From Stegostoma tigrinum (taxonomy: Eukaryota): DNA of 64,000 bases. The stretch lies in the NCBI RefSeq assembly GCF_030684315.1, contig NC_081394.1, positions 5,488,163 through 5,552,162 of the forward strand, in the 5' to 3' direction. How positions within the stretch are numbered: position 1 is the first letter of the stretch; the number at the start of each line of letters is the position of its first letter. The notes under the pieces were generated by a model. The model made no database searches. It worked only from the letters and a program-made list of their open reading frames with translations, and was not told where the DNA came from. The translations under genes were made by a program, and so were the position numbers. Shown here piece after piece: positions 12,216-64,000 of this stretch.

Positions 12216-13379
12216 TATGACCTTCCCTCAGTCATGAAATCAGAAATGGGGATGTTTTCTGGTGATTGCACCATGTTCAGCACCGTTCACAATTCCTCAG
12301 ACAGAGGAGGCAGACTGATTGAAAACACAATTATACCTGGATAACATTAAGTCTTGGGCTGACAAGTGACAACTCTCATTGGCATCAGAAATGGCTACAT
12401 TTCTGAAGAAGGGCCTAGGCCCAAAACGTCAGCTTTCCTGCTCCTCTGATGCTGCTTGGCCTGCTGTGTTCATCCAGCTCTACACCTTGTTATCTGACTA
12501 TAAATCTGTAGTTTGGATTCCATTACTGGCCTAAATTATGCCACTGCAGATGTGCAGTGAAGAGGCTATTATTGCCACTCACCAATCTTTGTCACTATTG
12601 AACACGATCGCACACCCTATAAGGCAAAACAGTCCACTTTCAGACCTTCAAAATGTGCTCCCAACACTTGTGGTGCACAGTAGCAGCAGTGTGTACTATC
12701 TATAAGGTACATTGCAGTAACTCAACCAGACTCCTGAGGCCACCCCTTCCAAACTTGAGGCTTCTAACAACCAGAGGCACAAGGATAGCAGATACAGGAG
12801 AACACGCACCCCCAGCAAGTGCCCTTTCAAGTCACTCACCATCCTGACTCATATCACCATTCCTTCAGCGTTGCTGAGTCAATGCCCTGGAACTCCCACC
12901 CCAACAGTACCACATGCACCTAAAGCACGTGGACTGCAGCGGTTCAAGAAGGCCGGTCAACACCGACACCTGCTCAAGGGCCACAAGGGACCGGCAACAA
13001 ATGCTGGTCTCGTCAGCAGTGCCTATACCTTGTGAATAAAAAAAAATCATTATTTTGTAATTCTCCAGTCTGTTCTTCCACTCACCCTGGAAGTGGACTG
13101 ATCGATACATCAAACGAGGCAACATGAGTCTCCCTACAGTCCATGAACTGCAGCAATCACTTTCTCAATCAGGGAAGCAGCAATAACTGCTGACCCAGCC
13201 AGCAACAGCCATATCCTGTAAATGAATGAACCTCTCCTGGGTTCCACATCTCCGAATCCCTTCACTCAAAATAAAAATCTGTCAATCTCAGATTCAGAGT
13301 CTCAGTTAACCTCTCCAAGCTTTGACTGCTTTTTGAGGGACAGAGATCCAGATTTCCACTTCCTTTTCTTCAAGAAGTT

Positions 13380-13483
13380 TTAGTTACTCACTCTTCCTTT
13401 CAGTTTCACTGCTTTAGTTACTCACTCTTCCGTTCAGTTTCACTGCTTTAGTTACTCACTCTTCCGTTCAGTTTCACTGCTTT
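13380..13483 (+). repeat. 33-bp tandem repeat, 3 copies (2 copies in the right arm at ~63165-63235)
   Basis: ttagttactcactcttcc(t/g)ttcagtttcactgct; accounts for the 33-bp shift in arm register. Confidence 0.85.
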
Positions 13484-14049
13484 ACCTCAGTCTTCCAATC
13501 TGATCAAATCGACACAAACAATCAGAGCTTAAGAGTGAAGTCTTGTTGCACAGTGAGAAAATTTCAGGCTAGAAAAGATCCTTTATTTTCAGTCGCCTTT
13601 AACAGGAGACTCCATCTGCCCTGTTGCCGGACACAAATGATCCTACCGACACTGTTCAGCAGAGACTTGAGGACAAAACATTCATTTTCATGGAGCTGAT
13701 GATGAAATCTTAGCACCACGACTTCGATAATTACTTCCTTGTTGGTCAGGACAGGACCTACACTGTACAAATGTGGAATGTTCCTTTTCTGCACGATTTG
13801 GCTTCAGTTTCAATGCTAACCAACAGTTTCTCCCACATTGCCCCGCCATCCCAAGTGGAAAATTACAGATCGCAGGAGAACAGGTGAGTCCTTCTTCAAA
13901 GATTGTTCAAGGTTGTAAAATCTGTAGACAAGTTCTAATATATGGATTTTAATCTCCTGGTACACAGAGTCATTGAGTAATGTCAGAATTGATGAAACAG
14001 CTTCCTTTTCAGACAAGTGAGTCCCAGATCAGAACAACAATGAAATCCC

Positions 14050-14612
14050 CAAGACAAAAGGAACAGAACACGACAGCGCAGGAACAGGCCCTTTGACCCA
14101 TCGAGTTTGTGCTGACATATGGCGCCTTTCTAAGCTAATAGTCTTTTACCGCTACAGCGTCCGTAACCATTCTCTGCCTATTCATACATCTGTCAAGATG
14201 GCTCTTAAATGTTGCTTTTGTACCAGCCTCCACCATCTCCTCTGGCAGCAAGTTCCAGGCACTTACTACCCACTGTGTAAAAAACCTGCCTCTCACATCT
14301 CCTTTAAAATTATCCCTTTTTTACGTTAAACCTATACCACCTAATAATTGACTTTTATACCTCGATGCGAAGACTCCAACTCTGCTGTTTATCCACGAAT
14401 CTCACAATTTTGTAAATTTCTGTCAGGTTGCCCCTCATCCTTTGACATTCAAGTGAAAACAAACCAAGTTTGGCGGATTCTCCTCTCATAGCTAATACAC
14501 TCCAAACCAAGCAACATCCTGGTAAATTGTTTCTGTACCCTCTCCAAAGCCAGCCTGTCCTTCTGGCAGTGTCGTGACCAGAACTGTTCATAATATTCCA
14601 AATATACCAGTA
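14050..14612 (-). mobile_element. CR1 LINE 3' fragment (mirror ~62040-62600)
   Basis: LEYYEQFWS..LERVQKQFTRML..LGLFSLE..RGNLTEIYKI. Confidence 0.85.
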
Positions 14613-15281
14613 CCATCAGCTTCCAGTATTTCAGTTCCTGTTAAATCTGTTGTTTCTGAGGCAGCAGATCACAACAACTCCTCACTAGGTCCAAACAATA
14701 AATTCTCCTCTTCTTCCTGTTCCCATAAGCTAACACTTGGAGACAGCAAGGGATTGCAGATGCTGAAAGCTAGAGTCAATAAATATGGAGCTGGTAAAGC
14801 ACAGCAGGTCAGACAGCATCTGAAGAGCAGGGAAGACAACGCTTTAGGCCGAAACCTTTTGTCAGGAGTCAGGAAGTGTTTCTGTCCAAGACTCACAGTC
14901 CACACCTTTGCTTTGGAGCAAGTGAGTGAAATGAGATGTTGTTTAATATCAGAATAAGCTCAGCCAGACTGAGAGAGATGGTGTTGGAGACTGGAGGGAA
15001 ACTGGCAGTAACTAGGAATGTGTGGTGTTTGGGGTAAAATGAAATTAATTTTATGCAGGAAAAGACGTTACTTAAAAGTTATATTTCAAGGAGTTGACTC
15101 TCCCACATTCCCCAGCTCCCCACACCTCTGCTCCCAACCACCAGGAACATAGACTGGATGACCATTCCCAGCCTCCCACCTGAGTTTCCCACAATCGCTG
15201 ATCCCTGACTTCAGCCAACTTGATTCACTCCAAGTCATATCAGGGACTTACTGCCTGTAGACAGCAGCCCCTCTGTGCAAA

Positions 15282-15474
15282 CCAGGCCAAGCAGCATCAG
15301 AGGAGCAGGAAGGCAGACGTTTCGGGCCGAAACCCTTCTTCAAGGCTCTAGGCCTGAAATGTCAGCCTTCCTGTTCCTCTAACGCTGTTTGGCCTGCTGT
15401 GTTCATCCAGCTCTACACCTTGTTATCTCATATTCTCCAGCATCTGCAGTTCCTACTATCTCTGAAACAATTTT
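15282..15474. mobile_element. Same-family Penelope-type hairpin insertion (mirror ~61175-61367)
   Basis: Inverted arms around the minus-strand motif TTGAAGAAGGGTTTCGGCCCGAAACGTC; agcccctctgt duplicated at 15266 and 15475. Confidence 0.7.
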
Positions 15475-17389
15475 AGCCCCTCTGTTCAAGCAGTTACCAG
15501 CAGAGTCATTAAACGTCAGACTGTAGACCCACTAATATCGGCAGCAGCTTCTCTTTAATCACAGATCAGAGCAAAAACTACAGGCAGAAAAGTAACAAAA
15601 TATCCAGGGTAGAAATACAGATGTATCCAGATCTAAAATATTTACAAAGTTTTATCCTTCCATTGAAAATTATGATCAATCACCATTGGGGTAGATACTT
15701 CATATACAAAAGTCACATTTAAATTAACAAGACATATCTGTAAATTAGGACAAACACCCAGGTTAAAAATACAAACATTTCCAATGTTAAAAAATTCACA
15801 GCAGCAACAGATTTACTTTAATCAAACCCTGGAGCAAACAGTACAGATAGAAAAGGAATCATGATATCTGACAGATTCAGAGATAAAATATTTACAATAC
15901 AATTACTTAGATAAATTTATAGAAAATTAACAGTTAAATGTGCAGGATATATATTTGGCCAGATGCAGTTTCAATGTGTAAACCATCCAGGTTCTGGTTT
16001 CTGAATTTTAAACACTTGCTGGCTCTGAGGGAACCACGTGCTACAGAGGGAGTTTCCGAAGCCTCTTCCCATGTTCCCCAATGAGGGACGACCATCGCTA
16101 CAAGGGCTGCAGTGGGGCAAGTTGAGATGGACAATGAATGGGGCCCTGGCAGCAAATATGCACACTGAGAACAAGTTAACAAATTTTCCAGAAACTACAC
16201 GATGCTCCCACCAACTTATCAACAGGATATTTTGGAAATTTTCTTGGAAAAGTCTCTGAGGGAAGGATCAATGCTAAAAGTGAGCCCGATGATTGAGTTT
16301 GGACACAGTCTGTGAGTGTCATAGTGACATAATACACAGAATGAAATACTTTATCCAGGAATAGGATAATATTTTCACTGGGAATTTTCCTCCTGAAATT
16401 GTGCTGCCCCAAAGGGTTTGCGGAATTTGGGAAGTGATTGTTGATCCCAATCCTGAGCTCAGACTTTCCACCAGGAATCACTTGATCCCAACAATACAGG
16501 GGTGATTTCCTGCTCTCTGAGTCAGGCTCAGTCAGTGTTGGACAGACCTGTTCCCCAGAAGATTTTGCTCTCTAGCCGCTCCATCCTGATGCTCAGGTGC
16601 TGTTGGCACACGGCTCTGTGCTTCACCTGAACCAGGCACCTCTGTCAAAGGGTCACAATTCGATGCTTGATTTTGTTCACTGCTGTGTTGGTTTTGAATA
16701 CAATTCCTGGGAGAGAAAGAAAGCAACAGAATGCATTTTAAAACAATCCAATGCTTTGGACGCATGTATAAAGGAGCTGTTCAGGAGCATAGACATGTAA
16801 AATGACACTTAACATCCTGGGGATGAATGGTAGCTGGAAAATGGATGACAGCAGCTACATGGTGATGGAACACAGTGTGTAGAGGAGAGCAGGTTTACAG
16901 GATAGGCAGTGGGCAAGAACTGGACATTCTACAAGAGCTGACCGACAGAGGGAGGGCCAGAGGTGAGAGTGAGAGAACCCTACAATAGCTCCTCATCCCA
17001 GTGTGAGGGGTGTATGTGGGGAAAGGTAACGAGCACAGCAATGTGGGTATTGAATGAAACAGGAAATCTGAGATGTGCCCAGTGGCTGCATTAAGGGGAT
17101 GGTTTGAAAAGTGCAGGTAGAGTGACAACAAGAAATTGCTTTTTTTGATCGCATTTTTAACACTGTGGTGCAGTAAAAGATACAGAGAACTAAGGGAGAG
17201 ACACTGAAACTGGAAATCTCTGGGATACAGGAGCACAGAGATCTGAGGGCTGTGCAGCTGAAGGTGGGTACAGGTAGGAAGGGCTGAGGCCACGGAGGGA
17301 TTCAAAAGGATTTGAATGATCAAATCTGTCAATCCCTATCTGAAATAGATTTAACAATGGAGCATCCACAACCACAATAAGTATAAATC

Positions 17390-17985
17390 TGAATGAGCTT
17401 ACCCCTGTTTGCAGCCTCTGTACCATCCTCACAGCTAACTTTCCCACTGAGCTTTGTATCACCAGCAAATTGGGACATTTCCATTCCATCCCCTCATCGC
17501 AGTCCCTGATATAGATTGTGAGTCACTGAGATCCCAGCATTGATCCTTACAGCACCAGTTACATCTTGACTGCTGAAAATGACCCACTTGTTCCTGCTCT
17601 CTTCCTGTCTATTAACTAATCCTCAATCCATGCTGTATTACCCCCATTCCCCCTTGAGACCTCATCTTGTCGAACAACCTATTGTGTGGCATCTTCTCAA
17701 ATTCCTTCTGTCATTCCCAACATATGCCCCATCCTCTGGTTTTCCAGTGGGATAATATTTGCTCCTTTCCAATCCATGGGGACTGTTCAGAAGCGAGAGG
17801 ATGACAAGCTGGAAGTGACTGGATGATGCTGCTCAATGACAGACTGGATTGAAGTGTCCTCACAGCTCAGTGAATGGACAGTGACAGTGCTCAGCGACAT
17901 TTCACGCAATGTTATACAAAGATATAAATAGGTTACGATTGAATCTGCGGAACATTCTGGAACTCACCATATTATTCACTTTCAG
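17390..17985 (-). pseudogene. Gene B 3' remnant: post-TM intron block with the TM exon lost
   Basis: Homologous to 490-1060 and 24920-25140 and keeps the tg|gtgagtt donor, but SINE-like sequence sits where the TM exon should be. Partly mirrored at ~60080-60448. Confidence 0.7.
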
Positions 17986-18921
17986 GTCATCATTAGATTC
18001 TTAAATCCAGATATTTTATTGAATTCAAATTCCACCGTCTGACATGGTGGGATTCGAACTTGGGGCACCAGAACATTATCTGGGTCTTTGGATTAACAGT
18101 CCAGTGATCATGGGCAGTTTTATCAATAACAACTTCCTATCTGTAGATTTTTATTTGATAATCAGACTTTAAAATTCACAGCTATGGATCTTGAAGAAAC
18201 TCTGATCCATAACTCTCTGCTTAACATTTCCGTGAGAAGGTTAAAGCTCACGTCTGCAGTGTTCACAATGACAATTCCCTGTCCCCTGTCTTTCTTTCAA
18301 AAAAATTATAAACAGCACAGAGCCAAATGGAACCAAGTAAATCTCAACACAATGAGAAAATTCACTTTCTCGCTGGGACTGTGTGGAAGGGCAGGTTACA
18401 CCTAGTTCAATATTACTCTCCGCTAACTTCAACCAGCATCACTCCCAGTCAGCTTCCCAACAGGAGGGTACTGGTAAAATTGTAGCAATATTCTCCACGC
18501 AGAATTCCAGACACGCTATTGCTAGTGGGAATCAGGAATCCTTAGAGTCCTGTATCTGCAGGACAGGAAGGTGAGTCTCAGAAACAGAAATAACAATTCC
18601 AGGGAGTTTAAGGATCGGTTCCAGGTAACAGTGACCCACACGACTCACTCGCGCAGAGTCATTCTTTGGTAAAATATCACACAGCTTATCAAATCTTCCA
18701 ATATTCCTGTCTATCCAGCATGATCAAATCTAAGAGCTGAAAACCCATGCAGAAGTTTAGAAACAGATTGACCTGGTACAGATGTCTTTGGTCGAGGTGT
18801 GGGAGCTCGCTCTAGAGAAAACAAACTGCAGAAATGTTCAAACACTGTGGACTGCTCAACTAACAATGAATGGACCATCTCAAGTCAGAGATAAAACAAT
18901 AGCTGAAGTAGAGACCTTCAC

Positions 18922-19264
18922 CTGCGACGGAGAGCTTGACTTGAAAAACTCCCTCCCATCAAAAGCGATCCCCCATCCTGCTGTAAATCTGACACTGATA
19001 CTCGTCCTCCTCTGTCTCCCTGAGGTCAGAGATCAGAACTGACCAGTTGCCTTGTTCCAGTTAATCTTTGAATAAATTTGTTGTTTCTGAACTGTGGGTC
19101 TTGGTCTCTCAAATCATCATACCTGCCGACAAACTTGTGTAAAAATTCACTCTTGGGTGTCCCCCAGATTACCTGTAAATCAAAGACTGGGACATTCCCA
19201 CTACAGGCACAGGGCAGCATAACCTGCTCCCCAATGAATCCAGAAACTGGGACAGGACAGTCAC
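18922..19264 (-). pseudogene. Paralogous IgV pseudo-exon (gene B)
   Basis: Clear homologue of the gene A V exon (DCPVPVSGFIGEQVMLPC..VIWGT..QDPQFRN..GNWSVLISDLRETEEDEYQCQIY). Carries a 2-bp deletion near 19083, in-frame TAA and TGA, and a further 1-bp deletion; splice sites are retained. Confidence 0.9.
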
Positions 19265-19932
19265 CTGGAAAAGAGTGAAAGTATTTATCCACAGCTATAA
19301 CCTCCCTGCTGGTACTTTACATGCCAAGCTTCTCATGGTTACGCTGCGATGCTGGATTTACAAGAAGCTCTGATCAGTAACTCACTGCTTTCATTTCTGC
19401 AGAAGGGTTAAAGCTCAGAAATTCAGGAATCCCACCCAAAAGCAGCTTGTGCCAGATATTTGTCAGCACTGAACAGACGAACCACACTTCGAATCACATG
19501 TTTCCCATTTGGACACATGCTGGGAGAACACAGCTGGATACTGTCAACTTCCCTCTTCACCTCACATTCTCTGAGAGAATTTTGAAGTTGGGAAGTGGAA
19601 AATTGTGCCTGAAAGACAAAGATAATAACGACTGCAGGAGAGTCACTGAGGATTCGGGGTGAATTTGGACAGGTCGTGGAACAGTGACAATCTGAGCAGG
19701 GAGTGAGGCAGCACCTGATGGTCAGAAAGGGGCCAAGGCAATGTGTGCCCTCACCTCCCTCCACCACTAACCTGTGAGTCCTTGCTCCTGCACCCCACAA
19801 GATCCAGACTTTAACCATCCCAGGCCCCAGAGCACAATCCCCAGTCTTGGTGACTCCATTCTGCACACTCCGAGACAGGTCCAATTGTGATTTGATGCCA
19901 GCACTGCCCAGACTATCATCCCAGCATGGATG

Positions 19933-21562
19933 AAAGGGGGTTCAGACAGATAAACGCAGAGTCTGGTTCCTGTATTAAAGGGGGTTAGGACAGATAAACC
20001 CAGAGTCTGCTTCCTGTAATACAGGGGGTTCAGACAGATAAACCCAGAGTCTGGTTCCTGTATTAAAGGGGGTTCAGGCAGATAAACCCAGAGTCTGGTT
20101 CCTGTATTAAAGGGGGTTCAGACAGATAAACCCAGAGTCTGGTTCCTGTATTAAAGGGGGTTCAGACAGATAAACCCAGAGTCTGGTTCCTGTATTAAAG
20201 GGGGTTCAGGCAGATAAACCCAGAGTCTGGTTCCTGTATTAAAGGGGGTTCAGACAGATAAACCCAGAGTCTGGTTCCTGTATTAAAGGGGGTTCAGACA
20301 GATAAACCCAGAGTCTGGTTCCTGTATTAAAGGGGGTTCAGACAGATAAACCCAGAGTCTGGTTCATGTAATAAAGGGGGTTCAGACAGATAAACCCAGA
20401 GTCTGGTTCTTGTATTAAAGGGGGTTCAGACAGATAAACCAAGAGTCTGGTTCCTGTATTACAGGGGGTTAGGACAGATAAACCCCGAGTCTGGTTCCTG
20501 TGTTATGGGGGGTTCAGACAGATAAACCCAGAGACTGGTTCCTGTATTAAAGGGGGTTCAGGCAGAAAAACCCAGAGTCTGGTTCCTGTATTAAATGGGG
20601 TTCAAGCAGATAAACCCAGAGTCTGGTTCCTGTATTAAAGAGGGTTCAGTTAGATAAACCCAGAGTCTGGTTCCTGTATTACAGGGGGTTCAGACAGATA
20701 AACCAAGAGTCTGGTTCCTGAATTACAGGGGGTTCAGGCAGATAAACCCAACCTCTGGTTCGTGTATTAAAGGGGGTTTCAGACAGATAAACCCAGAGTC
20801 TGGTTCCTGTATTACAGGGGGTTCAGACAGATAAACCAAGAGTCTGGTTCCTGTATTACAGGGGGTTCAGGCAGATAAACCCAGAGTCTGGTTCATGTAG
20901 TAAACAGGGTTCAGACAGATAAACCCAGAGTCTGGTTCCTGTATTAAAGGGGGTTCAGACAGATAAACCCAGAGTCTGGTTCATGTAGTAAACAGGGTTC
21001 AGACAGATAAACCCAGAGTCTGGTTCCTGTATTAAAGGGGGTTCAGTCAGATAAACCCAGAGTCTGGTTCCTGTATTACAGCGGGTTCAGACAGATAAAC
21101 CAAGAGTCTGGTTCCTGAATTACAGGGGGTTCAGGCAGATAAACCCAACCTCTGGTTCGTGTATTACAGGGGGTTTCAGACAGATAAACCCAGAGTCTGG
21201 TTCCTGTATTACAGGGGGTTCAGGCAGATAAACCCAGAGTCTGGTTCATGTAGTAAACAGGGTTCAGACAGATAAACCCAGAGTCTGGTTCCTGTATTAA
21301 GTGGGGTTCAGACAGAAAAACCCAGAGTCTGGTTCCTGTATTACGGCGGGGGGTTCAGGCAGATAAATCCAGAGTTTGGTTCCTGTATTAAAGGGGGTTC
21401 AGCAGATAAACCCAGAGTGTGGTTCATGTAGTAAACAGGGTTCAGACAGATAAACCCAGAGTCTGGATCCTGTATTGATCAGGGTTCAAACAGATAAGCC
21501 AAGAGTCCTGATCCTGTATTAAACGGGGTTCAGACAGATAAACCCGGAGTCTGATTCCTGTG
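19933..21562 (+). repeat. 44-bp minisatellite (~37 units), AAAGGGGGTTCAGACAGATAAACCCAGAGTCTGGTTCCTGTATT
   Basis: Period of 44 (20041 to 20085); no unique spacers. Confidence 0.95.
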
Positions 21563-21773
21563 CTTAAAAATGCTTGATAACTCATTTGGACACAATGAGT
21601 TTTTTTTTCCAGTTACTTTAAAACTGTTTGGCTCTATAACAGGAAATAGTCTCGAAATCAAAGTGCACAATCTTAAGCTTCCATATTCCCTGAAATTACG
21701 TGCGTTGTTACCGAGTTTATGAATTTTGCAGGATTTTAAACAATTTTTGTGGTTCGTTTTCAGATTGACTCAC

Positions 21774-21960
21774 TTTGGAGGGAGAGTATCAGTCCCTCTC
21801 CTGCCGTGGATCCACGGTTTTCCGGGATTTCCCACTCGGATCGCTGTCTCACTCCAATCCCTTCAGGGGAAAAGCAGCTTCGAACTGAATTCTCCCGACA
21901 GCGGCTGCATCCAGATCACTCACCGCCGCCCCCCCGCCTCAAGGAAACCCCTGAGATTGG
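21774..21960 (-). promoter_or_regulatory. Second promoter and first exon: NF-kB GGGAAATCCC (21824-21833) and GGGGTTTCC (21943-21951), GC box (21923-21938), CCAAT (21956-21960), short exon ending caaa|gtgagt at 21774
   Basis: Local CpG enrichment, a perfect kB decamer and a strong donor. The mirror copy (56465-56498) reads ATG-MAGEGLILSLQ; this copy has ACG. Confidence 0.6.
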
Positions 21961-22249
21961 CAACACTTCGAGGATAGATTGCGTGTCTCTCTATCCTGGA
22001 TGAGAATGTTCTGAGTTGCTCTATCATTCCCGTTTCTATCCAGCTGTTATCCATCATCGAGCTCTGACTTTCCTGATAGTTCTTGCATGGTTATAATTGT
22101 ACCTGGTGTGGATTCCAGAGAGGGTTGAGAACATTAGAAAGAAATCATTGCTGGACAAAGTCAACGTGGGTCAGTGGGAGCAGGATAACATCTGATTAAC
22201 TAAAGAAAGAACATAACCTTAAATAAACTCATTGACCTGACTGTTCAAA

Positions 22250-23165
22250 AAACTCATTTATATATGATTTGGATGTCAATATAAAGCTATGGGTATTAAG
22301 TTTGCAGATGAACACCAAAATAATGGGTGTAGTGGACAGTGAAGATGATGATCTCAGAGTATCATGATCAGATGGGCCAGTGGGCTGAGGAGCAGCAGAT
22401 GGAATTTAATTTCAATAAATGTGAGGCGTTGCATTTTGATAAGGCAAACCAGGGCACTGAATGATCGGGTCCTCGGCCATGTTGTCAAATAAAGAGACCT
22501 AGTCCCTTGGAAGTGGAGTTGCAGGTAGACAGGGTGATGAAGGCAGTGTTTGGCACACTTCCTCTCATTGGTCAGTGCATTATATATAGGAGTTGGTATG
22601 TCACGTTGCAGATGTACGGGACATTGATGCAGCTGCTTTTTGGAATACTGTGTGCAATTCTGGTACCCCTTCTGCAGGAAAGATGTTGTTAAACTTGAGA
22701 GAATGCAGAAAAGATTTAAAGATATTGCCAGGACTGGATGGTTTGTGTAATAGAAAGGCTGAATAGGTTTGGGCTATTTTCACTGGAGTGGAGACGGAGC
22801 GATCACTTTATTGAGGTTTATAAACTAATGAGGGCCATGAGTAGAGTAAATAGCCAAGGTCCTTTCCTAGAGTAGGGGAGTCAAAAACTAAAAGAACATA
22901 AGTTTAAAGGTGAGAGGGAAAGATTTATAAACAACCTGAGGGGTAACATTTTCATGCCGAGAGTAGTGCATGTATGGAATGAAGTTGCCACAGAATGTGT
23001 TGGAGGCTGGTACCATTACAACATTTAGTAGGCATCTGGGTGAATAGGAAGGGCTTACAGATACGGTCCAAATGCTGGTAAATGGGACTAGGTCTGACTG
23101 GAATGTCTGGTTGACAAGGACGAGTTGGACAAAGAGGTCTGTTCCCATGCTGCATGACTCGATGT
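22250..23165 (+). mobile_element. CR1 LINE 3' fragment (absent from the right arm)
   Basis: KFAD motif, QVDRVMKAVFG and a typical CR1 3' end; lies inside the 1.5-kb segment missing from the right arm. Confidence 0.85.
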
Positions 23166-23994
23166 GGAAGAGGCATGTTATAGCTATCAACTCTCTCAGA
23201 AACCATTGAACCAGAACAGAACCAAGTCACCTTGATCATGAAGGCCTACCCAAGGAGGAGGATTTGGGAACTGTTGAGTCCAATGACAAGGGGGACTGAT
23301 ATGACAGTTTCAGCAGCAAATGAGCTGAAGTGAGTAGTAGAAACAGACAGAGTTGAAAGTGCACAGTGCAGGTGATTGATACTAGGCTAGAAACTAAACT
23401 CGGGTATAAATAGGAAGCTGAACTTGTAAACACTTTGATGCAACACACACGGAGACGAGGGAGTATTGTGTCAGGGTTTCAGGATCCGGGAGATGATGTG
23501 ATGTGCAATCAGTTTAGTTTGACTCTATGCCTAGTTATCCCCTGATCCTTGATATACTTCTAAAGTAACTTTGGAGTTGCCTTTATTTAACCTGCCATTA
23601 TACTTCCACGCCCCCGTTTGGCTATCCTAATTTGCTTGTTAAGTTTCTCTTGCACATGCTGTACTCCTGTAGGACTTCAACTTGTTTGACTCCTCAGTAT
23701 CTGGCATTAGTCTCCCTTGTTCTCTTTATCTAATCCTGTACATCACCAGAGTTTGCCGGATTTGTTGATCCCACCCTTTACCTTTATTGGAACATGTTGG
23801 CCCTGTCCTCTCCCTCTTTTCCTTCTTAAATGCTTCCTACTGTTCTTAAACATAGAAACAGATTTTGGACTTAGATTTAACCAAAAGTATCTACCCACAG
23901 TCCCCTCTGGCCAGGTCATATCTCACCTAATGAAAATTGGCCTTCATCGGTTCTAATTCTGATTACAAGCCCACCCTTTCCATAGATCATGTAA

Positions 23995-37531: not shown

Positions 37532-37559
37532 TTGCGCGGGCTCGGAGAAACGGACTAAA

Positions 37560-42677: not shown

Positions 42678-42679
42678 GG

Positions 42680-49500: not shown

Positions 49501-52500
49501 CAGGGATTGAATCAGGAAACAAAGAGATTGTATAGCCCAGTTGTAACTCAAGAGCCTCCTCAGTAATCCTACCTCCCAGATTGCTTTGGTCTCTGTCCCT
49601 GGATATATACCCTGTCTGACTGGTGAGGGTAGAGGGGTGGGAGGGTTCTTGGTAGGGGTTGGGGTTGGTGGCGGAGCCCACCAGAGGTTTGGGGATGGTG
49701 ATATCCAGGCAGGAGGGAGTGGCCCCAAGATCTCCGCATTGAAGACAGTGGAGCATAATATTAGGGAGAGGTAATTGCCTCATGATATTATCACTAGAGT
49801 ATTAATGCAGAAACTCAGCTAATGATTTGAATGTCACGGCAGATGGTGAAATTTGAATTCATTTTTACCAAAATCTGGAATTAAGAATCTATTGATGAGC
49901 ATGAAATCCTTGTTAATTATTGGGAAAGACCTATCTGGATCACTAATGTTCTTCAGAAAAAGGACATCTGCCATCCTCACCCATTCTGGCCGACATGTGA
50001 CTCCAGACCCACAGCAATGCAGCTGACTCTCAGTTGTCTCCTGAAATGTCCGAGCAAGCCCCATTCAGCTGTACCAATCGCTACAAAGTCTCAAAGAAAT
50101 GAAACCAGGTAGATAACCCAGCACCAATCTAGGCACCAGAAAAGACAACAGCAGAAACAGTCCTGTCGACCCTGCAAACTTCCCCTCACTAACATCTGGG
50201 GTCTACTGGGAGAGCCGTCTCACAGAGACTAGTCAAGCAACAGCCTGACACAGTCACACCCACGGAATCATACCTTACAATGTCCCAGGCATTGGTACCA
50301 TCACCGTCCCTGAGTATACCCTGTCCGACTGGCAGGTCAGGCTCAGCAGGGGTAATAGCACAGTGGTATACACAGTCAGGAGGGAGTTGCCCTGTGAGTC
50401 CTCACCATTGACTCTGGACCCATGAAGTCTCATGGCTTCAGGTTAAACATGGGTAAGGAAACTTTCTTGTTGATCACCACAGTACCATCCACCCTCAGCT
50501 GATGAATGGGTGCTCCTCCATGTTGAAAACAATTGGAGGAATCAAGGATGACAAGGCACAAAACATACTGGAGGAGGTAATGGCCGAGTGGTATTATCAC
50601 TGGACTGATAATCCAGAAACCTAGATAATGTTCTGGGGGCCCTTGTTCGAATTTCACCATGACAGATGGTGGAATTTGGAATTTGAATCCAATAAAATAT
50701 CTGGAACTAAGGATCTAATGATGACCGTGAATCCGTTCTCAATTGTCGGAAAAACCCATCTGGTTCATCAATATCCTTTGGGGAAGGAAACTGCCATCCT
50801 TACCTTGTCTGGCCTACATGTGACCCCAGACCCACAGCAATGTGGTTGACTCTGAACTGCCCTCTGCATAATTTGGGATTGGTAATAAATGCTGTTTAGC
50901 CAGTGGTGCCCTCATCCTGTGAATGTATTTAAAACAACTCTGGGTGCGAGATTTCAATGTCCACCACCAAGAGTGGCTCGGCAGCAGGACTACTGATCGA
51001 ACTGTTTGGATCTTAAGGGACGTAGCTGCTAGACTGGGTCTGCGGCAGGTGGTGTGGGAAAAACAACCTTGACCTCACCCACATTGTAAATAATCTCCAT
51101 TGTGCTACATGGTACAGTCTTCAAACAGATCTAGCATTCATGAGGCACTGTGGGCCATCAACAACAGCAGAATTGTACTCCAATACCATTTGTAACTTCA
51201 CAACATAGCATATTGCAGTCAACCATCAATCAGGGAATCAACCCTGGTTCAATGGAGAGTGCAGGACGGATTGCCAGGAGTATCGCCAGGCATACTTGAG
51301 ATTGAGATGTAAACCTGGTAAAGTCACCAAACAGGAGTAGTTGCATGCCAAACAGTATAAGCAGCAAGTGATAGTCAGAGCTGAATGGTCCCATAACTGA
51401 TGGATTAGATCTAAGCTGCAGTCCTGCTACGTCCAGTTATGAATTGAGACTCCACAAATATTCCCATTCTCAATGATGGAAGAGCCCAGCATATCAGTGC
51501 AAAAGATAAGGCTGAAATATTTGCAGCAATCTTCAGTCAGAAGTGCTGAGTGAATGATCCGTCACTGTTTCCTCTAGTGGTCCCAGCATTATAGACACCA
51601 GTCTTCACCCAATTTGATTCACTCTTGTAATATGAAGAAAGAGTTGGAGACTGTGGACACTACAAAGGCTACAGGTCCTGACAACATTCTGGCAATGGTA
51701 CTGAAGACTTGTGCTCCAGAACTTGCCGGTCCCCTAGCCAAACTGTTCAGTGTAGTTACAACACTGGCGTCTACTCGACAATGTGGAAAGTTGCCCAGGT
51801 ATGTCCTGTACATAAAAAGCAGGACAAATCCAACCCAGTCAGTTACCACTACATCAGTCTACTCTTGATCATCAACAGTGTTATCAAGCAGCACCTGCTC
51901 AGCAATAACCTGCTCAGTATTACCCAGTGTATCCTGGATGGTGTCAAGCTTCTTGCGTGTTGAGGCAGCACTCATCCAGACAAGTTGGGAGCATTCCATC
52001 ACAGTCAGCTCCTGACCTCATTGCAGCCTTGGTTCAAACATGGACAAACGAGCTGAATTCCAGGAACGAGATGAGAGTGACAGCCCTTGACATCGAGGCT
52101 GCATTCAACCGAGTTTGGCATCAAGGACCCTTAGCAAAACTGGAAGCAGTGGGTATCAGGGGCAAACTCTCCAGTCTTTAGGATCATGTCTGACACAGAG
52201 GAGGATGGTCGTGGTTGTTGGAGGCCTATAATCTCAGCTCCAGGACATCTCTGCAGGAGTTCCTCAGGGTAGAGTCCTCAGCCCAACCATCTTCAGCTGC
52301 TTCCTCAATGACCTTCCTCCCATCAAAAGTGGGGATGTTCACCGATGATTGTTCAATGATCAGCACCATTCATAAGTTCTCAGATACTGAAGTAGTCCGT
52401 CTTCAAATGCAAAACAATTTGGACAATATCCAGGCTTGGGCTGACAAATGGCAATTAACATTTGCAGCATACAGACGTCAGGCTATGATCATCACCAGTA

Positions 52501-54658
52501 AAAGACAATCGAACCACCCCACCGTGGCATTCAATAGTGTTACTATCACTGATTCTCCAACTGCCAACATCTTGGTGTTAGCACTGTCCAGAATTCAACT
52601 AGACTCACCTCTTAAACACTGGATACAAGAGCAGGTCAAAGGCTAGGAATACGGTGACCAGTAACTCACCTCCTGCCTCCCCAAAGTCTGTCCACGATCT
52701 ACAAGGCACAAGTCAGGAGTATGATGTAATACTCCCCACTTGCCTGGATGAGTGCAACAACACTGAGGAAGCTTGACACCACCCAGGACAAAGCAGCCTG
52801 CTTGACTGGCACAACACCCTTAAGCATTCTCTCTTCCACCGCCGACACTCAGTATCAGCAATGTTTACTATCGACGAGATGCACTGAAGATCCTCAGACA
52901 GCATTTTCCAAACCCACGACTACTTCCATCTCGAAGGACAAGGCCAGCAGATATATGGGAACACCACCATCTTCAAGTTCTTCACCAAGCCATTCTCTAT
53001 GCTGACATACAAATATAATGCTGTTCCTTCACTGTTGCTGGGTCAAAATCCTGGAATTCCCTCCCTAAGGGCATTGTGGGTCGACTCACAGCAGGTGGAC
53101 TGCGGCGCACCAAAAATGCTGCTCACCACCAGCTTGTCAAGGGGCAGCTAGGGACAGGCATTTATATGCTGGGCCCAGACAGCGACACCCTCATCCTACA
53201 AATGAGAAAAAAGAAATTGACCTGGGTATCAATGGTATTTCCATCTAATCCCAAGACTTTCCCATTTAGGAAATGGTTTCTGTTTCTTCCTTTGGGTTTA
53301 ATTGAAGGTAAACTGCTGCTGGTCAGTGTCCAGTTCTCTATTGGAAAGCATGTTGTTACCAAGTTGTGTAGAGTACTCAGCTGGAATGTGTTTGTAAAAT
53401 AATGAGCAGGCAAAAGCAGTGCACAGCCCCTTTAAGAGATTGTGCTTTGTCTGGTCTTGGAAGTTTGCAAGTACTGTACAGAGAGCCCCAAAATTGAAAC
53501 AAGTGTGTCAAAAGGCTTTACACTTGGCAGGCAAAACAGCAGTTTTGTCTTGCTGTTGAGATAACTAATTTAAATTTAGCCAATTAATTCAAACCAAGCG
53601 CCTAGATACAGAAAACCAACTGAATTTAAAATTGATGGTTTAGACAACCTGCACCATTTTATAAAAAAAAATGTTATTGAAATGTATGTAACACAAGGGT
53701 TTTTGAAAATAAGGGAGAGAGCCATTTGTCATTTGGAGCGAAAGCGAATCCACCATATAGAGAAATAAACCTTGCTTTCTCACAAAATTGTTAAGCTCTC
53801 TTAAAAAGCCCCAGCAATGATGCCACAGCATTTTAGCTCAAAATCCTCACTGTAGGGGTTACACAGAAAATGCCCCTGACAGCAGAATCAGCAGAACAGT
53901 GTTTGTGAAATAATGGAGAAGGCAGAGCGCTGCAGAAGACAGTCTCTCCAAGTTAGCACAGACTAAGTTTTAATTTATTGTTGTCTTATTAATTGGGCTC
54001 ATACCCAACCTCATGCTATAGAGAATTGCGCTTGTAGAAAACTGCACTGTAGACGATTGCTATTTTTGAAAAAAAAATCGCTTTATCTGTACAACAGAAA
54101 ACTCGTGTTAGCCAAACAGCATTCACGAATTTCTCAAGTGCATTATAGCCAATTCGCATTGACAAAACATGTTTAACAGCAGAACTACCTGTACTCGTTA
54201 CTCACATAGAGTGGAGATCAGAGATTTTCTTTTCTTTAACCAATCTTTTCATAGATACAAGGGTGAGGCGAACTTCTGAGTGTTTCAAGTTTAGTTAGTA
54301 GAAGAGGACATCTACTCCCGCTGTAACAGATTAGGCGCTTGTGTGGGTGTGTGTGTGTGTGAGAGAGAGAGAGCGCGAGAGAGAGATTATTGGTATCTAA
54401 CCTCCCACATCTGTCAAGGACTAGAATTAGCTCGGGATCTCTTTGTACTGGGGCTGGTTCTGAAACACTAGCTGATCAAGATCTCTGCTGTTAATTTTGT
54501 TCATGTGTTCCAGTCTGCTCATGTCTTCATTACTGTCTCCAGATCCTGGACTTTCTACTGGAGCAAGTGCTGGATTGCAAATCGGGATTCTTGCTGCTGT
54601 TGTTTTTGCTGTTGTTGGAATTGTCTTTTGCATCATCCGCCAGCGCAAAAGATGGTGA
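43531..54658 (+). CDS. Gene A': mirror copy (exons 43531-43591, 45501-45845, 49057-49125, 54543-54654); frames intact but no exon 1 or promoter upstream in this orientation
   Basis: Exons and splice sites match gene A except S>G, K>T and Y>C in the IgV. The upstream G-rich intron tract abuts CR1 sequence at ~42675, and no in-frame ATG was seen. Confidence 0.75.
45501..45845 (+). CDS. Gene A' IgV exon
   Basis: Within ORF 45473-45877. Acceptor ccttttccag ends at 45500; donor gtgaga starts at 45846. Confidence 0.93.
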
Positions 54659-56708: not shown

Positions 56709-58478
56709 GCACAGGAATCAGACTCCGGGTTTATCTGTCTGAACCCCGTTTAATACAGGATCAGGACTCTTGGCTTATCTGTTTGAACCCTGATCAATAC
56801 AGGATCCAGACTCTGGGTTTATCTGTCTGAACCCTGTTTACTACATGAACCACACTCTGGGTTTATCTGCTGAACCCCCTTTAATACAGGAACCAAACTC
56901 TGGATTTATCTGCCTGAACCCCCCACCGTAATACAGGAACCAGACTCTGGGTTTTTCTGTCTGAACCCCATTTAATACAGGAACCAGACTCTGGGTTTAT
57001 CTGTCTGAACCCTGTTTACTACATGAACCAGACTCTGGGTTTATCTGTCTGAACCCCCTGTAATACAGGAACCAGACTCTGGGTTTATCTGTCTGAAACC
57101 CCCTGTAATACACGAACCAGAGGTTGGGTTTATCTGCCTGAACCCCCTGTAATTCAGGAACCAGACTCTTGGTTTATCTGTCTGAACCCCCTGTAATACA
57201 GGAACCAGACTCTGGGTTTATCTGACTGAACCCCCTTTAATACAGGAACCAGACTCTGGGTTTAACTGCCTGAACCCCGTTTAATACAGGAACCAGACGC
57301 TTGGTTTATCTGCCTGAACCCCCTTTAATACAGGAACCAGACTCTGGGTTTATCTGTCTGAACGCCCCCTGTAATACATGAACCAGAGGTTGGGTTTATC
57401 TGCCTGAATCCCGTGTCATTCAGGAACCGGACTCTGGGTTCATCTGCCTGAAACCCCTTTAATACAGGAACCAGACTCTGGGTTTATCTGCCTGAACCCC
57501 CCTTTAATACAGGAACCAGACTCTGGGTTCATCTGCCTGAAACCCCTTTAATACAGGAACCAGACTCTGGGTTTATCTGTCTGAACCCTGTTTACTACAT
57601 GAACCAGACTCTGGGTTTATCTGCCTGAACCCCCTGTAATACAGGAACCAGACTCTGGGTTTATCTGTCTGAAACCCCCTGTAATACACGAACCAGAGGT
57701 TGGGTTTATCTGCCTGAACCCCCTGTAATTCAGGAACCAGACTCTGGGTTTATCTGTCTGAACCTCCCTGTAATACACGAACCAGATTCTGGGTTGATCT
57801 GTCTGAACACCCCTGTAATACAGGAACCAGACTCTGGGTTTATCTGTCTGAAACCCCCTTTAATACAGGAACCAGACTCTGGGTTTATCTGTCTGAACCC
57901 TGTTTACTACATGAACCAGACTCTGGGTTTATCTGTCTGAACCCCCTTTAATACAGGAACCAGACTCTGGGTTTATCTGCCTGAACCCCCTTTAATACAG
58001 GAACCAGACTCTGGGTTTATCTGTCTCAACCCTGTTTACTACATGTACCAGACTCTGGGTTTATCTGTCTGAACGCCCCCTGTAATACATGAACCAGAGG
58101 TTGGGTTTATCTGCCTGAACCCCGTGTAATTCAGGAACCAGACTCTGGGTTCATCTGCCTGAAACCCCTTTAATACAGGAACCAGACTCTGGGTTTATCT
58201 GCCTGAACCCCCTTTAATACAAGAACCAGACTCTGGGTTTATCTGTCTGAACCCCCTTTAATACAGGAACCAGACTCTGGGTTTATCTGTCTGAACCCCC
58301 TTTAATACTGAACCAGACTCTGGGTTTATCTGTCTGAACCCCCTTTAATACAGGAACCAGACTCTGGGTTTATCTGTCTGAACCCCCTTTAATACAGGAA
58401 CCAGACTCTGGGTTTATCTGTCTGAACCCCCTTTAATACAGGAACCAGACTCTGGGTTTATCTGTCTGAACCCCCTTT
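56709..58478 (-). repeat. Mirror copy of the 44-bp minisatellite (~40 units)
   Basis: Reverse complement of the same unit; ~139 bp longer than the left copy. Confidence 0.95.
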
Positions 58479-61400
58479 CATCCATGCTGGGATGATAGTC
58501 TGGGCAGTGCTGGCATCAAATCACAATTGGACCTGTCTAGGAGTGTGCAGAATGGAGTCACCAAGACTGGGGATTGTGCTCTGGGGCCTGGGATGGTTAA
58601 AGTCTGGATCTTGTGGGGTGCAGGAGCAAGGACTAACAGGTTAGTGGTGGAGGGAGGTGAGGGCACACATTGCCTTGGCCCCTTTCTGACCATCAGGTGC
58701 TGCCTCAATCCGTACTCAGATTGTCACTGTTCCCCGACCGGTCCAAATTCACCCTGAATCCTCAGTGACTCTCCTGCAGTCGTTACTATCTTTGTCTTTC
58801 AGGCACAATTTTCCACTTCCCTCCCAACTTCAAAATTCTCTCAGAGAATGTGAGGTGAAGAGGGAAGTTGACAGTATCCAGCTGTGTTCTCCCAGCATGT
58901 GTCCAAATGGGAAACATGTGATTCGAAGTGTGGTCCGTCTGTTCAGTGCTGACAAATATCTGGCACAAGCTGCTTTTGGGTGGGATTCCTGAATCTCTGA
59001 GCTTTAACCCTTCCGCAGAAATGAAAGCAGTGAGTTACTGATCAGAGCTTCTTGTAAATCCAGCATCGCAGCGTAACCATGAGAAGCTTGGCATGTAAAG
59101 TACCAGCAGGGAGTTTTTCAAGTCAAGCTCTCCGTCGCAGGTGAAGGTCTCTACTTCAGCTATTGTTTTATCTCTGACTTGAGATGGTCCATTCATTGTT
59201 AGTTGAGCAGTCCACAGTGTTTGAACATTTCTGCAGTTTGTTTTCTTTAGAGCGAGCTCCCACACCTCGACCAAAGACATCTGTACCAGGTCAATCTGTT
59301 TCTAAACTTCTGCATGGGTTTTCAGCTCTTAGATTTGATCATGCTGGATAGACAGGAATATTGGAAGATTTGATAAGCTGTGTGATATTTTACCAAAGAA
59401 TGACTCTGCGCGAGTGAGTCGTGTGGGTCACTGTTACCTGGAACCGATCCTTAAACTCCCTGGAATTGTTATTTCTGTTTCTGAGACTCACCTTCCTGTC
59501 CTGCAGATACAGGACTCTAAGGATTCCTGATTCCCACTAGCAATAGCGTGTCTGGAATTCCGCGTGGAGAATATTGCTACAATTTTACCAGTACCCTCCT
59601 GTTGGGAAGCTGACTGGGAGTGATGCTGGTTGAAGTTAGCGGAGAGTAATATTGAACTAGGTGTAACCTGCCCTTCCACACAGTCCCAGCAAGAAAGTGA
59701 ATTTTCTCATTGTGTTGAGATTTACTTGGTTCCATTTGGCTCTGTGCTGTTTATAATTTTTTTGAAAGAAAGACAGGGGACAGGGAATTGTCATTGTGAA
59801 CACTGCAGACGTGAGCTTTAACCTTCTCACGGAAATGTTAAGCAGAGTGTTATGGATCAGAGTTTCTTCAAGATCCATAGCTGTGAATTTTAAAGTCTGA
59901 TTATCAAATAAAAATCTACAGATCGGCAGTTGTTATCAATAAAACTGCCCATGATCACTGGACTGTTAATCCAAAGACCCAGATAATGTTCTGGTGCCCC
60001 AAGTTCGAATCCCACCATGTCAGACGGTGGAATTTGAATTCAATAAAATATCTGGATTTAAGAATCTAATGATGACCTGAAAGTGAATAATATGGTGAGT
60101 TCCAGAATGTTCCGCAGATTCAATCGTAACCTATTTATATCTTTGTATAACATTGCGTGAAATGTCGCTGAGCACTGTCACTGTCCATTCACTGAGCTGT
60201 GAGGACACTTCAATCCAGCCTGTCATTGAGCAGCATCATCCAGTCACTTCCAGCTTGTCATCCTCTCGCTTCTGAACAGTCCCCATGGATTGGAAAGGAG
60301 CAAATATTATCCCACTGGAAAACCAGAGGATGGGGCATATGTTGGGAATGACAGAAGGAATTTGAGAAGATGCCACACAATAGGTTGTTCGACAAGATGA
60401 GGTCTCAAGGGGGAATGGGGGTAATACAGCATGGATTGAGGATTAGTTGCGAGAGAGCAAAATCTTCTGGGGAACGGGTCTGTCCAGCACTGACTGAGCC
60501 TGACTCAGAGAGCAGGAAATCACCCCTGTATTGTTGGGATCAAGTGATTCCTGGTGGAAAGTCTGAGCTCAGGATTGGGATCAACAATCACTTCCCAAAT
60601 TCCGCAAGCCCTTTGGGGCAGCACAATTTCAGGAGGAAAATTCCCAGTGAAAATATCATCCTATTCCTGGATAAAGTATTTCATTCTGTGTATTATGTCA
60701 CGATGACACTCACAGACTGTGTCCAAACTCAATCATCGGGCTCACTTTTAGCATTGATCCTTCCCTCAGAGACTTTTCCAAGAAAATTTCCAAAATCTCC
60801 TGTTGTACTGTTTGCTCCAGGGTTTGATTAAAGTAAATCTGTTGCTGCTGTGAATTTTTTAACATTGGAAATGTTTGTATTTTTAACCTGGGTGTTTGTC
60901 CTAATTTACAGATATGTCTTGTTAATTTAAATGTGACTTTTGTATATGAAGTATCTACCCCAATGGTGATTGATCATAATTTTCAATGGAAGGATAGAAC
61001 TTTGTAAATATTTTATATCTGGATACATCTGTATTTCTGCCCTGGATATTTTGTTACTTTTCTGCCTGTAGTTTTTGCTCTGAGCTGTGATTAAAGAGAA
61101 GCTGCTGCTGATATTAGTGGGTCTACAGTCTGACGTTTAATGACTCTGCTGGTAACTGCATGTACAGAGGGGCTAAAATTGTTTCAGAGATAGTAGGAAC
61201 TGCAGATGCTGGAGAATATGAGATAACAAGGTGTAGAGCTGGATGAACACAGCAGGCCAAACAGCGTTAGAGGAACAGGAAGGCTGACATTTCAGGCCTA
61301 GAGCCTTGAAGAAGGGTTTCGGCCCGAAACGTCTGCGTTCCTGCTCCTCTGATGCTGCTCGGCCTGGTTTGCACAGAGGGGCTGCTGTCTACAGGCAGTA

Positions 61401-64000
61401 AGTCCCTGATATGACTTGGAGTGAATCAGGTTGGCTGAAGCCAGGGATCAGCGATTGTGGGAATCTCAGGTGGGAGGCTGGGAATGGTCATCCAGTCTAT
61501 GTTCCTGGTGGTTGGGAGCAGAGGTGTGGGGAGCTGGGGAATGTGGGAGAGTCAACTCCTTGAAATATAACTTTTAAGTAATGTCTTTTCCTGCATAAAA
61601 TTAATTTCATTTTACCCCAAACACCACACATTCCTAGTTACTGCCAGTTTCCCTCCAGTCTCCAACACCGTCTCTCTCAGTCTGGCTGAGCTTATTCTGA
61701 TATTAAACAACATCTCATTTCACTCACTTGCTCCAAAGCAAAGGTGTGGACTGTGAGTCTTGGACAGAAACACTTCCTGACTCCTGACAAAAGGTTTCGG
61801 CCTAAAGCGTTGTCTTCCCTGCTCTTCAGATGCTGTCTGACCTGCTGTGCTTTACCAGCTCCATATTTATTGACTCTAGCTTTCAGCATCTGCAATCCCT
61901 TGCTGTCTCCAAGTGTCAGCTTATGGGAACAGGAAGAAGAGGAGAATTTATTGTTTGGACCGAGTGAGGAGTTGTTGTGATCTGCTGCCTCAGAAACAAC
62001 AGATTTAACAGGAACTGAAATACTGGAAGCTGATGGTACTGGTATATTTGGAATATTATGAACAGTTCTGGTCACGACACTGCCAGAAGGACAGGCTGGC
62101 TTTGGAGAGGGTACAGAAACAATTTACCAGGATGTTGCTTGGTTTGGAGTGTATTAGCTATGAGAGGAGATCCGCCAAACTTGGTTTGTTTTCACTTGAA
62201 TGTCAAAGGATGAGGGGCAACCTGACAGAAATTTACAAAATTGTGAGATTCGTGGATAAACAGCAGAGTTGGAGTCTTCGCACCGAGGTATAAAAGTCAA
62301 TTATTAGGTGGTATAGGTTTAAGGTAAAAAAGGGATAATTTTAAAGGAGATGTGAGAGGCAGGTTTTTTACACAGTGGGTAGTAAGTGCCTGGAACTTGC
62401 TGCCAGAGGAGATGGTGGAGGCTGGTACAAAAGCAACATTTAAGAGCCATCTTGACAGATGTATGAATAGGCAGAGAATGGTTACGGACGCTGTAGCGGT
62501 AAAAGACTATTAGCTTAGAAAGGCGCCATATGTCAGCACAAACTCGATGGGTCGAAGGGCCTGTTCCTGCGCTGTCGTGTTCTGTTCCTTTTGTCTTGGG
62601 GATTTCATTGTTGTTCTGATCTGGGACTCACTTGTCTGAAAAGGAAGCTGTTTCATCAATTCTGACATTACTCAATGACTCTGTGTACCAGGAGATTAAA
62701 ATCCATATATTAGAACTTGTCTACAGATTTTACAACCTTGAACAATCTTTGAAGAAGGACTCACCTGTTCTCCTGCGATCTGTAATTTTCCACTTGGGAT
62801 GGCAGGGCAATGTGGGAGAAACTGTTGGTTAGCATTGAAACTGAAGCCAAATCGTGCAGAAAAGGAACATTCCACATTTGTACAGTGTAGGTCCTGTCCT
62901 GACCAACAAGGAAGTAATTATCGAAGTCGTGGTGCTAAGATTTCATCATCAGCTCCATGAAAATGAATGTTTTGTCCTCAAGTCTCTGCTGAACAGTGTC
63001 GGTAGGATCATTTGTGTCCGGCAACAGGGCAGATGGAGTCTCCTGTTAAAGGCGACTGAAAATAAAGGATCTTTTCTAGCCTGAAATTTTCTCACTGTGC
63101 AACAAGACTTCACTCTTAAGCTCTGATTGTTTGTGTCGATTTGATCAGATTGGAAGACTGAGGTAAAGCAGTGAAACTGAACGGAAGAGTGAGTAACTAA
63201 AGCAGTGAAACTGAAAGGAAGAGTGAGTAACTAAAACTTCTTTAAGAAAAGGACGTGGAAATCTGGATCTCTGTCCCTCAAAAAGCAGTCAAAGCTTGGA
63301 GAGGTTAACTGAGACTCTGAATCTGAGATTGACAGATTTTTATTTTGAGTGAAGGGATTCGGAGATGTGGAACCCAGGAGAGGTTCATTCATTTACAGGA
63401 TATGGCTGTTGCTGGCTGGGTCAGCAGTTATTGCTGCTTCCCTGATTGAGAAAGTGATTGCTGCAGTTCATGGACTGTAGGGAGACTCATGTTGCCTCGT
63501 TTGATGTATCGATCAGTCCACTTCCAGGGTGAGTGGAAGAACAGGCTGGAGAATTACAAAATAATGATTTTTATTTTATTCACAAGGTATAGGCACTGCT
63601 GATGAGACCAGCATTTGTTGCCGGTCCCTTGTTGCCCTTGAGCAGGTGTCGGTGTTGAACGGCCTTCTTGAACCGCTGCAGTCCACGTGCTGTAGGTGCA
63701 TGTGGTACTGTTGGGGTGGGAGTTCCAGGGCATTGACTCAGCAACACTGAAGGAATGGTGATATGAGTCAGGATGGTGAGTGACTTGAAAGGGCACTTGC
63801 TGGGGGTGCGTGTTCTCCTGTATCTGCTATCCTTGTGCCTCTGGTTGTTGGAAGCCTCAAGTTTGGAAGGGGTGGCCTCAGGAGTCTGGTTGAGTTACTG
63901 CAATGTACCTTATAGATAGTACACACTGCTGCTACTGTGCATCACAAGTGTTGGGAGCACATTTTGAAGGTCTGAAAGTGGACTGTTTTGCCTTATAGGG

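Follow-up and report, generated by a model that had tools for sequence, protein, structure and literature searches.

A stretch of 64,000 nucleotides from the zebra shark (Stegostoma tigrinum) assembly, analysed at its full length and hereafter called the window (contig NC_081394.1, positions 5,488,163 to 5,552,162, forward strand), contains one whole gene for a B7-like protein with a single IgV domain and, in the opposite orientation, a 99% identical partial copy that has neither promoter nor exon 1 and keeps only a minor part of the tail exon. The two arms, their exon content, the gaps between them and their uneven divergence were observed in the window. The arrangement probably reflects a single inverted segmental duplication within a fast-turning and probably autosomal immune cluster, the copy being a likely pseudogene that conversion may still occasionally overwrite.

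The inverted repeat was delimited by self-BLAST and by global alignment of the arms, and consisted of the following parts.

12615–37400, no strand: left arm, its start being the point where the mirror exits the window and perhaps not its true end.
37401–42677, no strand: single-copy spacer of about 5.3 kb, whose left end holds the promoter and exon 1 and whose remainder consists of repeats.
42678–64000, no strand: right arm, inverted, continuing beyond the window edge.
36390–37400, no strand: C-rich minisatellite of intron 1, which contains the inner arm boundary; its mirror at 42678–43413 is rearranged.
19933–21561, no strand: 44-bp minisatellite of 36.9 copies, with a mirror of 39.9 copies at 56711–58478.

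The minus-strand self-matches paired 12615–15845 with 64000–60804 (97.96% identity), 16220–16576 with 60805–60449, 17614–18954 end for end with 60448–59108 (99.3%), 19299–21816 with 59116–56456 (a match that includes the 44-bp minisatellite) and, as the longest, 23337–37130 with 56456–42678 (13,842 columns, 97.9% with the C-rich minisatellite included). When both minisatellites were left out of the global alignment, 141 of 18,801 columns differed by substitution (77 transitions and 64 transversions), which corresponds to 99.25% identity; with the minisatellites counted in, the differences amounted to 324 of 21,161 columns (98.5%), and all these identity figures leave 3.3 kb of gaps uncounted. 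The uninterrupted core of the arm (23337–36389) was 99.37% identical, with 82 differences in 13,042 columns. The right end of the spacer is formed by the 3' end of a LINE, which we take to be CR1-like; it is severed at the right junction and continues in the other copies displayed. An Rfam search of the window returned no matches. A palindrome of at least 51 kb with a 5.3-kb spacer, arms of at least 21–25 kb at about 98–99.8% identity and a right arm extending past the window had been proposed in an earlier, sequence-only reading of this DNA, and each of these features was borne out: the arms measure 24.8 kb on the left and at least 21.3 kb on the right, the mirror match runs to base 64000, the last of the window, and the inverted structure spans at least 51.4 kb. 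This confirmation concerns the assembled sequence, that is, the letters of the window, among which there is no N and no assembly gap. Both arms exceed the 8 kb, and outside the minisatellites as well as in the core also the 99% identity, of the operational rule for large palindromes (arms >8 kb, >99% identical; excerpt of PMC8327919).

The V exon of the left arm is letter for letter that of the zebra shark gene LOC125448525 (protein models P0016 and P0039), and every exon of P0039 mapped at 100% to the minus strand of the left arm and spacer. The gene and its surroundings were laid out as follows.

37401–37800, minus strand: CpG-island promoter region, with a CpG observed/expected ratio of about 1 versus 0.28 window-wide; single copy in the window.
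37511–37574, minus strand: exon 1, with one ATG at 37531 (isoform X1) and another at 37574 (isoform X2); no counterpart in the right arm.
36211–36271, minus strand: leader (signal peptide) exon, left copy, from exon mapping.
33957–34301, minus strand: left copy of the IgV exon, recognised as V-set by Pfam at E=3.8e-10 and matching P0016 over 115/115 residues.
30677–30745, minus strand: stalk exon, left copy, from exon mapping.
25139–25250, minus strand: transmembrane exon, left copy, from exon mapping.
16532–16706, minus strand: cytoplasmic-tail exon with the stop codon, left copy, from exon mapping.
18920–19265, minus strand: pseudo-IgV exon in the last intron, with a frameshift and two stops; missing on the right through a 353-bp gap.
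1055–1162, minus strand: orphan transmembrane exon of a paralogue, beyond the visible arms, matching P0054 at 35 of 36 residues.

Within the window, 37401–37750 matched nothing but itself. The window has 232 frames of at least 70 aa; the Pfam scan was run on 138, a set that excluded frames in minisatellites and those mirrored in the right arm, and yielded two matches, namely the V-set domain and a sub-threshold RVT_1 hit (a weak reverse-transcriptase piece). The earlier description of an immune-type gene cluster encircled by the palindrome held for the immune-type character, which was supported by the V-set match and the B7-family relatives of the gene, and failed for the cluster: the repeat carries one whole gene and one truncated copy plus debris. 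A second correction is that the gene sits in the arms, and the spacer holds just the promoter and exon 1.

The exons recognised in the right arm were the following.

43531–43591, plus strand: leader exon, right copy, identical to the left.
45501–45845, plus strand: IgV exon, right copy, open; it differs from the left by one silent change and the replacements S>G, K>T and Y>C, the variant sites being 45563, 45612, 45615 and 45796.
49057–49125, plus strand: stalk exon, right copy, encoding the same protein.
54543–54654, plus strand: transmembrane exon, right copy, encoding the same protein; if its donor is not used, translation runs straight into an in-frame stop.
60449–60493, plus strand: tail-exon remnant comprising the last 14 codons, its acceptor gone with a 1037-bp gap.

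The introns and four exons are mirrored 5.3 kb away, as expected of an unprocessed inverted copy lying near its parent, and disabling lesions are present in the sequence: the promoter and start exon are absent, and the deletion in the tail exon removed 43 of its 57 codons (14/57 kept). An intact gene in each arm, as a gene-maintaining sex-chromosome palindrome would have, was not found. The right copy is likely a pseudogene, judging from these lesions; it is not plainly decayed, since its leader, V, stalk and transmembrane exons are open with intact splice sites and the Cys in its V domain is also present in whale shark P0001. Two homologue searches revealed no annotated protein with the right-arm V residues among their 65 and 38 matches.

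Four blocks are exclusive to the left arm, at 15844–16219 (376 bp), 16577–17613 (1037 bp), 18949–19301 (353 bp) and 21816–23336 (1521 bp), and the microhomology at their junctions is 2, 0, 6 and 1 bp, respectively. The longest of them extends over a further CpG island.

21816–23336, no strand: left-only block of 1521 bp, covering most of a second CpG island (21701–22100).

The microhomology deletions that had been noted between the arms were recovered as a clear case in only one block of the four. Because two of the gaps truncate exons, they represent losses from the right arm; the direction of gain or loss is settled for these two only, the 376- and 1521-bp gaps not being polarised.

The divergence of the arms was distributed unevenly. 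The inner arm differed at 44 of 9,739 columns (0.45%) versus 97 of 9,062 (1.07%) in the outer arm (p=1e-6), and one segment stood out.

26640–30175, no strand: near-identical intronic tract, mirrored at 49627–53151; a candidate conversion tract that includes a frameshifted LINE piece.

Only 5 differences occurred in the 3,525 columns of this tract. The lowest count in any 3.5-kb interval was 5 versus a shuffle median of 17, and none of 3,000 shuffles gave a count as low; the dispersion of the differences was still high once clustered SNPs had been merged (p=0.0008). The arm differences showed no skew towards G/C (54 vs 60), the trace looked for as evidence of G/C-biased conversion. Selection is an unlikely cause of the tract, because it is intronic and contains a broken LINE piece. 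The pattern is consistent with local gene conversion, which would be its simplest reading for a single arm pair. The sequence-only reading had invoked arm-to-arm conversion that keeps genes; the conversion-like tract agrees with the first half of this proposal, whereas the second does not stand, since the right copy has no promoter, no exon 1 and little of the tail, and the structure does not keep two genes.

The closest solved relatives of the V domain were CD276 (E=1e-17) and VTCN1 (3e-14), together with MOG, BTN1A1 and PD-L1. In Pfam, P0039 contains the V-set domain alone, followed by a 23-residue stalk, with neither an IgC nor a B30.2 domain, and its cytoplasmic tail of 57 residues has no Pfam match and no tyrosine. 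Canonical B7 proteins combine an IgV with a subsequent IgC domain, and butyrophilins carry a cytoplasmic B30.2 domain. By its domain content the protein would be classed as a B7/CD276-like single-IgV receptor, with a B7-type V-set and without the IgC of canonical B7 or the B30.2 of butyrophilins. The shark family resembles B7-, butyrophilin- and MOG-type IgV proteins in its N-terminal V-set and one membrane segment, and differs from them in lacking IgC and B30.2, in having one or two V domains, and in its short stalk and tyrosine-free tail. The relatives found constitute a shark multigene family that carries inconsistent automatic names. In a quick tree of the V domains (115 columns, 20 of 63 forks open), the V domains of the two arms were sisters (support 99) and adjoined a single V domain of the whale shark. 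A second recent group, at 95–98% identity, was formed by three further zebra shark genes from the same 19.0-Mb record, and species labels were clustered on the tree (29 changes versus 51.9 when shuffled). This pattern suggests that genes of the cluster are born and lost rapidly. No dedicated paper on shark single- or double-IgV B7-like genes appeared among the literature matches listed, and the excerpt of PMC10751288 gave no support for MHC linkage.

The inverted copy could in principle have been created during assembly, by a head-to-head fusion, within the G-rich minisatellite, of two haplotypes that carry different alleles of the gene. The junction does fall in low-complexity G-rich sequence, the right arm ends exactly where an allele would run on into the promoter, and the 3.5-kb tract lies at the allele level (p 0.10–1.0 vs the spacer), which fits conversion and would also fit two unevenly aged alleles. 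For an allele-level baseline, we used contigs from four publicly available runs, which represent two samples of a single study, and compared the eight pieces listed for each. The spacer contigs differed from the window at 1/4,262, 4/4,260, 3/4,159 and 4/4,216 positions (0.02–0.09%), and the arm divergence of 0.75% was 8–30 times higher (Fisher p<2e-8 in each run), in a comparison whose baseline comes from the spacer and not from an arm, and in which one of the two samples may be the window's own source. Immune loci can hold much more divergent haplotypes. In each of the four runs the spacer lay at one level of depth (on the 2.2-kb contig, 20, 10.4, 10.5 and 8.1), which also speaks against joined haplotypes. 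The listed contig pieces left 42185–42750 uncovered, and the count beyond the right end was zero; as contigs built from short reads tend to end at repeats of this kind, the result speaks neither for nor against the junction. A contig reaching 780 bases leftward from 37450, with a single-copy depth of 19.6, was considered as a copy-number test and dropped, since the minisatellite of the window has 31-mers that are repeated and shared between the arms (178 of 1,031 are shared). The joining of alleles would in addition require four large deletions and a rearranged minisatellite in one of them. Paralogues, and with them a real duplication, are favoured over alleles or a read fold-back, because the window is gapless, four large indels separate the arms and their divergence exceeds the allele level of the spacer; the earlier argument against a fold-back was upheld on these grounds. 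We consider the artefact unlikely. Dating of the duplication with the epaulette shark mutation rate of 7e-10 per generation (CI 1.4–14.1e-10; excerpt of PMC10587355) gave about 5 million generations and was abandoned as too loose to support anything beyond 'old'.

A real duplication might also have left the right copy alive, driven by a bidirectional CpG island or by an inversion allele that places the promoter on it, in which case it would supply a tail-less variant paired with the tailed receptor. The four open exons and intact splice sites of the right arm are compatible with this idea, as are an inner arm free of gaps >11 bp outside the minisatellite and, at 37692–37703, an ATG on the plus strand together with a donor that is in phase yet weak. 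Read-through of the transmembrane donor ends in frame just past the membrane segment, and the annotated paralogue P0054 ends alike. Against it, the proposed donor (AAA|GTCAGA) is a weak one, 5.8 kb away from the leader exon, and chance matches of this sort arise; the ATG within that exon does not share the reading frame of the V exon; no protein matching the copy is present among the homologues retrieved; and three of the four V substitutions alter the protein, with no sign of constraint. A live right copy appears improbable, somewhat more so than an artefact.

A related and still less probable scenario treats the locus as a promoter switch. The promoter lies in the spacer and the tail exon is present in the left arm only, and a crossover between the arms would therefore yield a tail-less receptor. 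Under this scenario, a crossover within 17614–36389 would invert the centre so that the same promoter drives the tail-less form, which stops just past the membrane segment, conversion would feed right-arm V residues into the live gene, and the 3.5-kb tract between the stalk and transmembrane exons would be the scar of an exchange. If this were true, a B7-like checkpoint protein would exist in zebra sharks in two allelic forms, one with and one without the tail.

The least credible alternative is a palindrome of the sex-chromosome type, X-linked and held by selection, with conversion maintaining two working copies: the formal size and identity rule is satisfied over 23337–36389 (99.37%; excerpt of PMC8327919), a conversion-like tract is present and the zebra shark record of 19.0 Mb fits the X size range, but one copy has no promoter, no exon 1 and little of the tail exon, the large gaps strike exons while in primate X palindromes they spare coding sequence (same excerpt), and the G/C skew is absent. 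The chromosomal evidence, which is indirect, points the same way. Homologues of the gene reside on records of 165 Mb in the small-spotted catshark, 44 Mb in the horn shark and 40 Mb in the epaulette shark, whereas the X of the non-myliobatiform species in one study, a set that includes these three sharks, measures 16.4–28.8 Mb with shared synteny (excerpt of bioRxiv 2025.02.26.637739), and shark X chromosomes are reported as homologous in excerpts of that preprint, bioRxiv 2025.03.13.642935 and PMC11406177 (a further source on the shark X, also in excerpt, is PMC10620051). X linkage, which the sequence-only reading had raised, is unlikely, because in three sharks the homologues lie on records larger than the X, and the locus is probably autosomal. 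At 19.0 Mb in the zebra shark and 16.5 Mb in the white shark, the records of these two species do fall within the X size range, and the autosomal assignment consequently leans on conserved X synteny. The LOC identifiers of the gene had no match in the published supplements searched. As to the earlier premise that large gene-bearing palindromes are established mainly for mammalian and avian sex chromosomes, large inverted duplicates are described elsewhere too (excerpts of PMC13688818 and PMC12632684). No shark palindrome was found among the best 20 literature matches, in a search of papers outside subscription, and the string 'palindrom' is absent from the excerpts of the three reports on shark sex chromosomes (bioRxiv 2025.02.26.637739, bioRxiv 2025.03.13.642935 and PMC11406177).

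For the inverted duplication that we prefer, the left side would be the original, because it continues into the promoter, while the right arm starts within the intron-1 minisatellite and cuts the 3' end of a LINE. A template switch at the G/C-rich minisatellite may have copied at least 21 kb backwards; later deletions would have stripped the copy of its tail exon, its pseudo-V exon and a CpG island, and conversion, once or repeatedly, may have made the inner arms alike again. Reshuffling of the minisatellite prevents the breakpoint from being located exactly.

By analogy, the shark structure would work like an inverted gene–pseudogene pair. In humans, IDSP1 lies 3.9 kb from IDS in the opposite orientation and drives inversions (excerpt of PMC11610362), and 411 inverted gene–pseudogene pairs, e.g., SORD/SORD2P, are given for the human genome (excerpt of PMC12632684). 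As in these two examples, a working gene is accompanied by a partial inverted copy a few kb away, in a layout that allows conversion or inversion; unlike in them, the copied block of the shark is unbroken over 21 kb or more and the promoter is in the spacer, and the predicted product of an inversion is a tail-less protein rather than a scrambled gene. Primate X palindromes, as far as the excerpt of PMC8327919 describes them, share with the shark locus arms >8 kb at >99% identity, a short spacer, gene sequence in both arms and spacer, and instability of the inner arm. They are X-linked and up to 99.99% identical, contain mostly testis genes and have their large indels outside coding sequence, in contrast to the single truncated copy, the immune-type gene and the likely autosomal position seen here. 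Autosomal palindromic segmental duplications are known in the mouse; SD12A1 is, like the shark pair, a lineage-specific inverted duplicate flanking a single-copy spacer, and it lies on an autosome (excerpt of PMC13688818). SD12A1 measures 6.5 Mb at approximately 93% identity and no evidence of its conversion is given in that excerpt, whereas the shark pair covers about 50 kb as seen, is 99.25% identical and has a conversion-like tract.

In its most likely reading, the locus merely adds to the known inverted duplicates, here within an immune cluster of fast turnover, and as such would matter little. It nevertheless cautions that not every long shark palindrome is a sex-chromosome structure, and its layout yields a prediction that can be tested by PCR, namely an inversion allele that removes the tail of a B7-like receptor. 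More broadly, the locus draws attention to B7-like genes with one or two IgV domains as a family spread across sharks.

The zebra shark proteins P0023, P0054 (the LOC132206695 product) and P0062 are encoded by three further genes of the LOC125448525 family, all located with LOC125448525 on one 19.0-Mb record. They share 95-98% identity over their first 168 residues, and this group represents a second recent amplification within the same cluster. The window contained exon remnants, a second CpG island and minor repeats:

1055-1162: orphan transmembrane (TM) exon, near-identical to LOC132206695
3393-3567: small old self-inverted element (about 83%), made of repeat fragments
4157-5992: G-rich minisatellite beyond the visible arms, with 48 copies of a 38-bp unit at 92% matches
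17950-17990: remnant of a second TM exon, with just the final bases and the donor (at about 17981) left
21701-22100: second CpG island, left arm
23993-24581: small old self-inverted element (about 71%), made of repeat fragments

No V exon was found upstream of the orphan TM exon. The introns around the two TM exons were 80-82% alike, a similarity that points to older tandem units.

The second CpG island lies upstream of the frameshifted pseudo-V exon (18920-19265, minus strand), reading along the minus strand, and is possibly the promoter of a second, dead gene unit. It includes an NF-kB-like 10-mer at 21824. In the right arm, the 1521-bp gap has taken out most of this island.

The annotated isoform X2 of LOC125448525 starts at an upstream ATG in a different frame (exon 1, 37574-37511) and skips the leader exon; it would therefore be devoid of a signal peptide.

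The family members compared (P0001-P0070) are membrane proteins with single or double IgV domains, spread across sharks and inconsistently named by automatic annotation; 29 of the 70 share a conserved EQNLLG-type tail end. Among the papers listed in literature searches, none was dedicated to this family. In the Cetorhinus maximus model P0029, the IgV-TM protein of this family is joined with a KRAB/SET (PRDM7-like) region, probably through annotation fusion of neighbouring genes; if they are neighbours, the KRAB/SET gene would be usable as a synteny marker.
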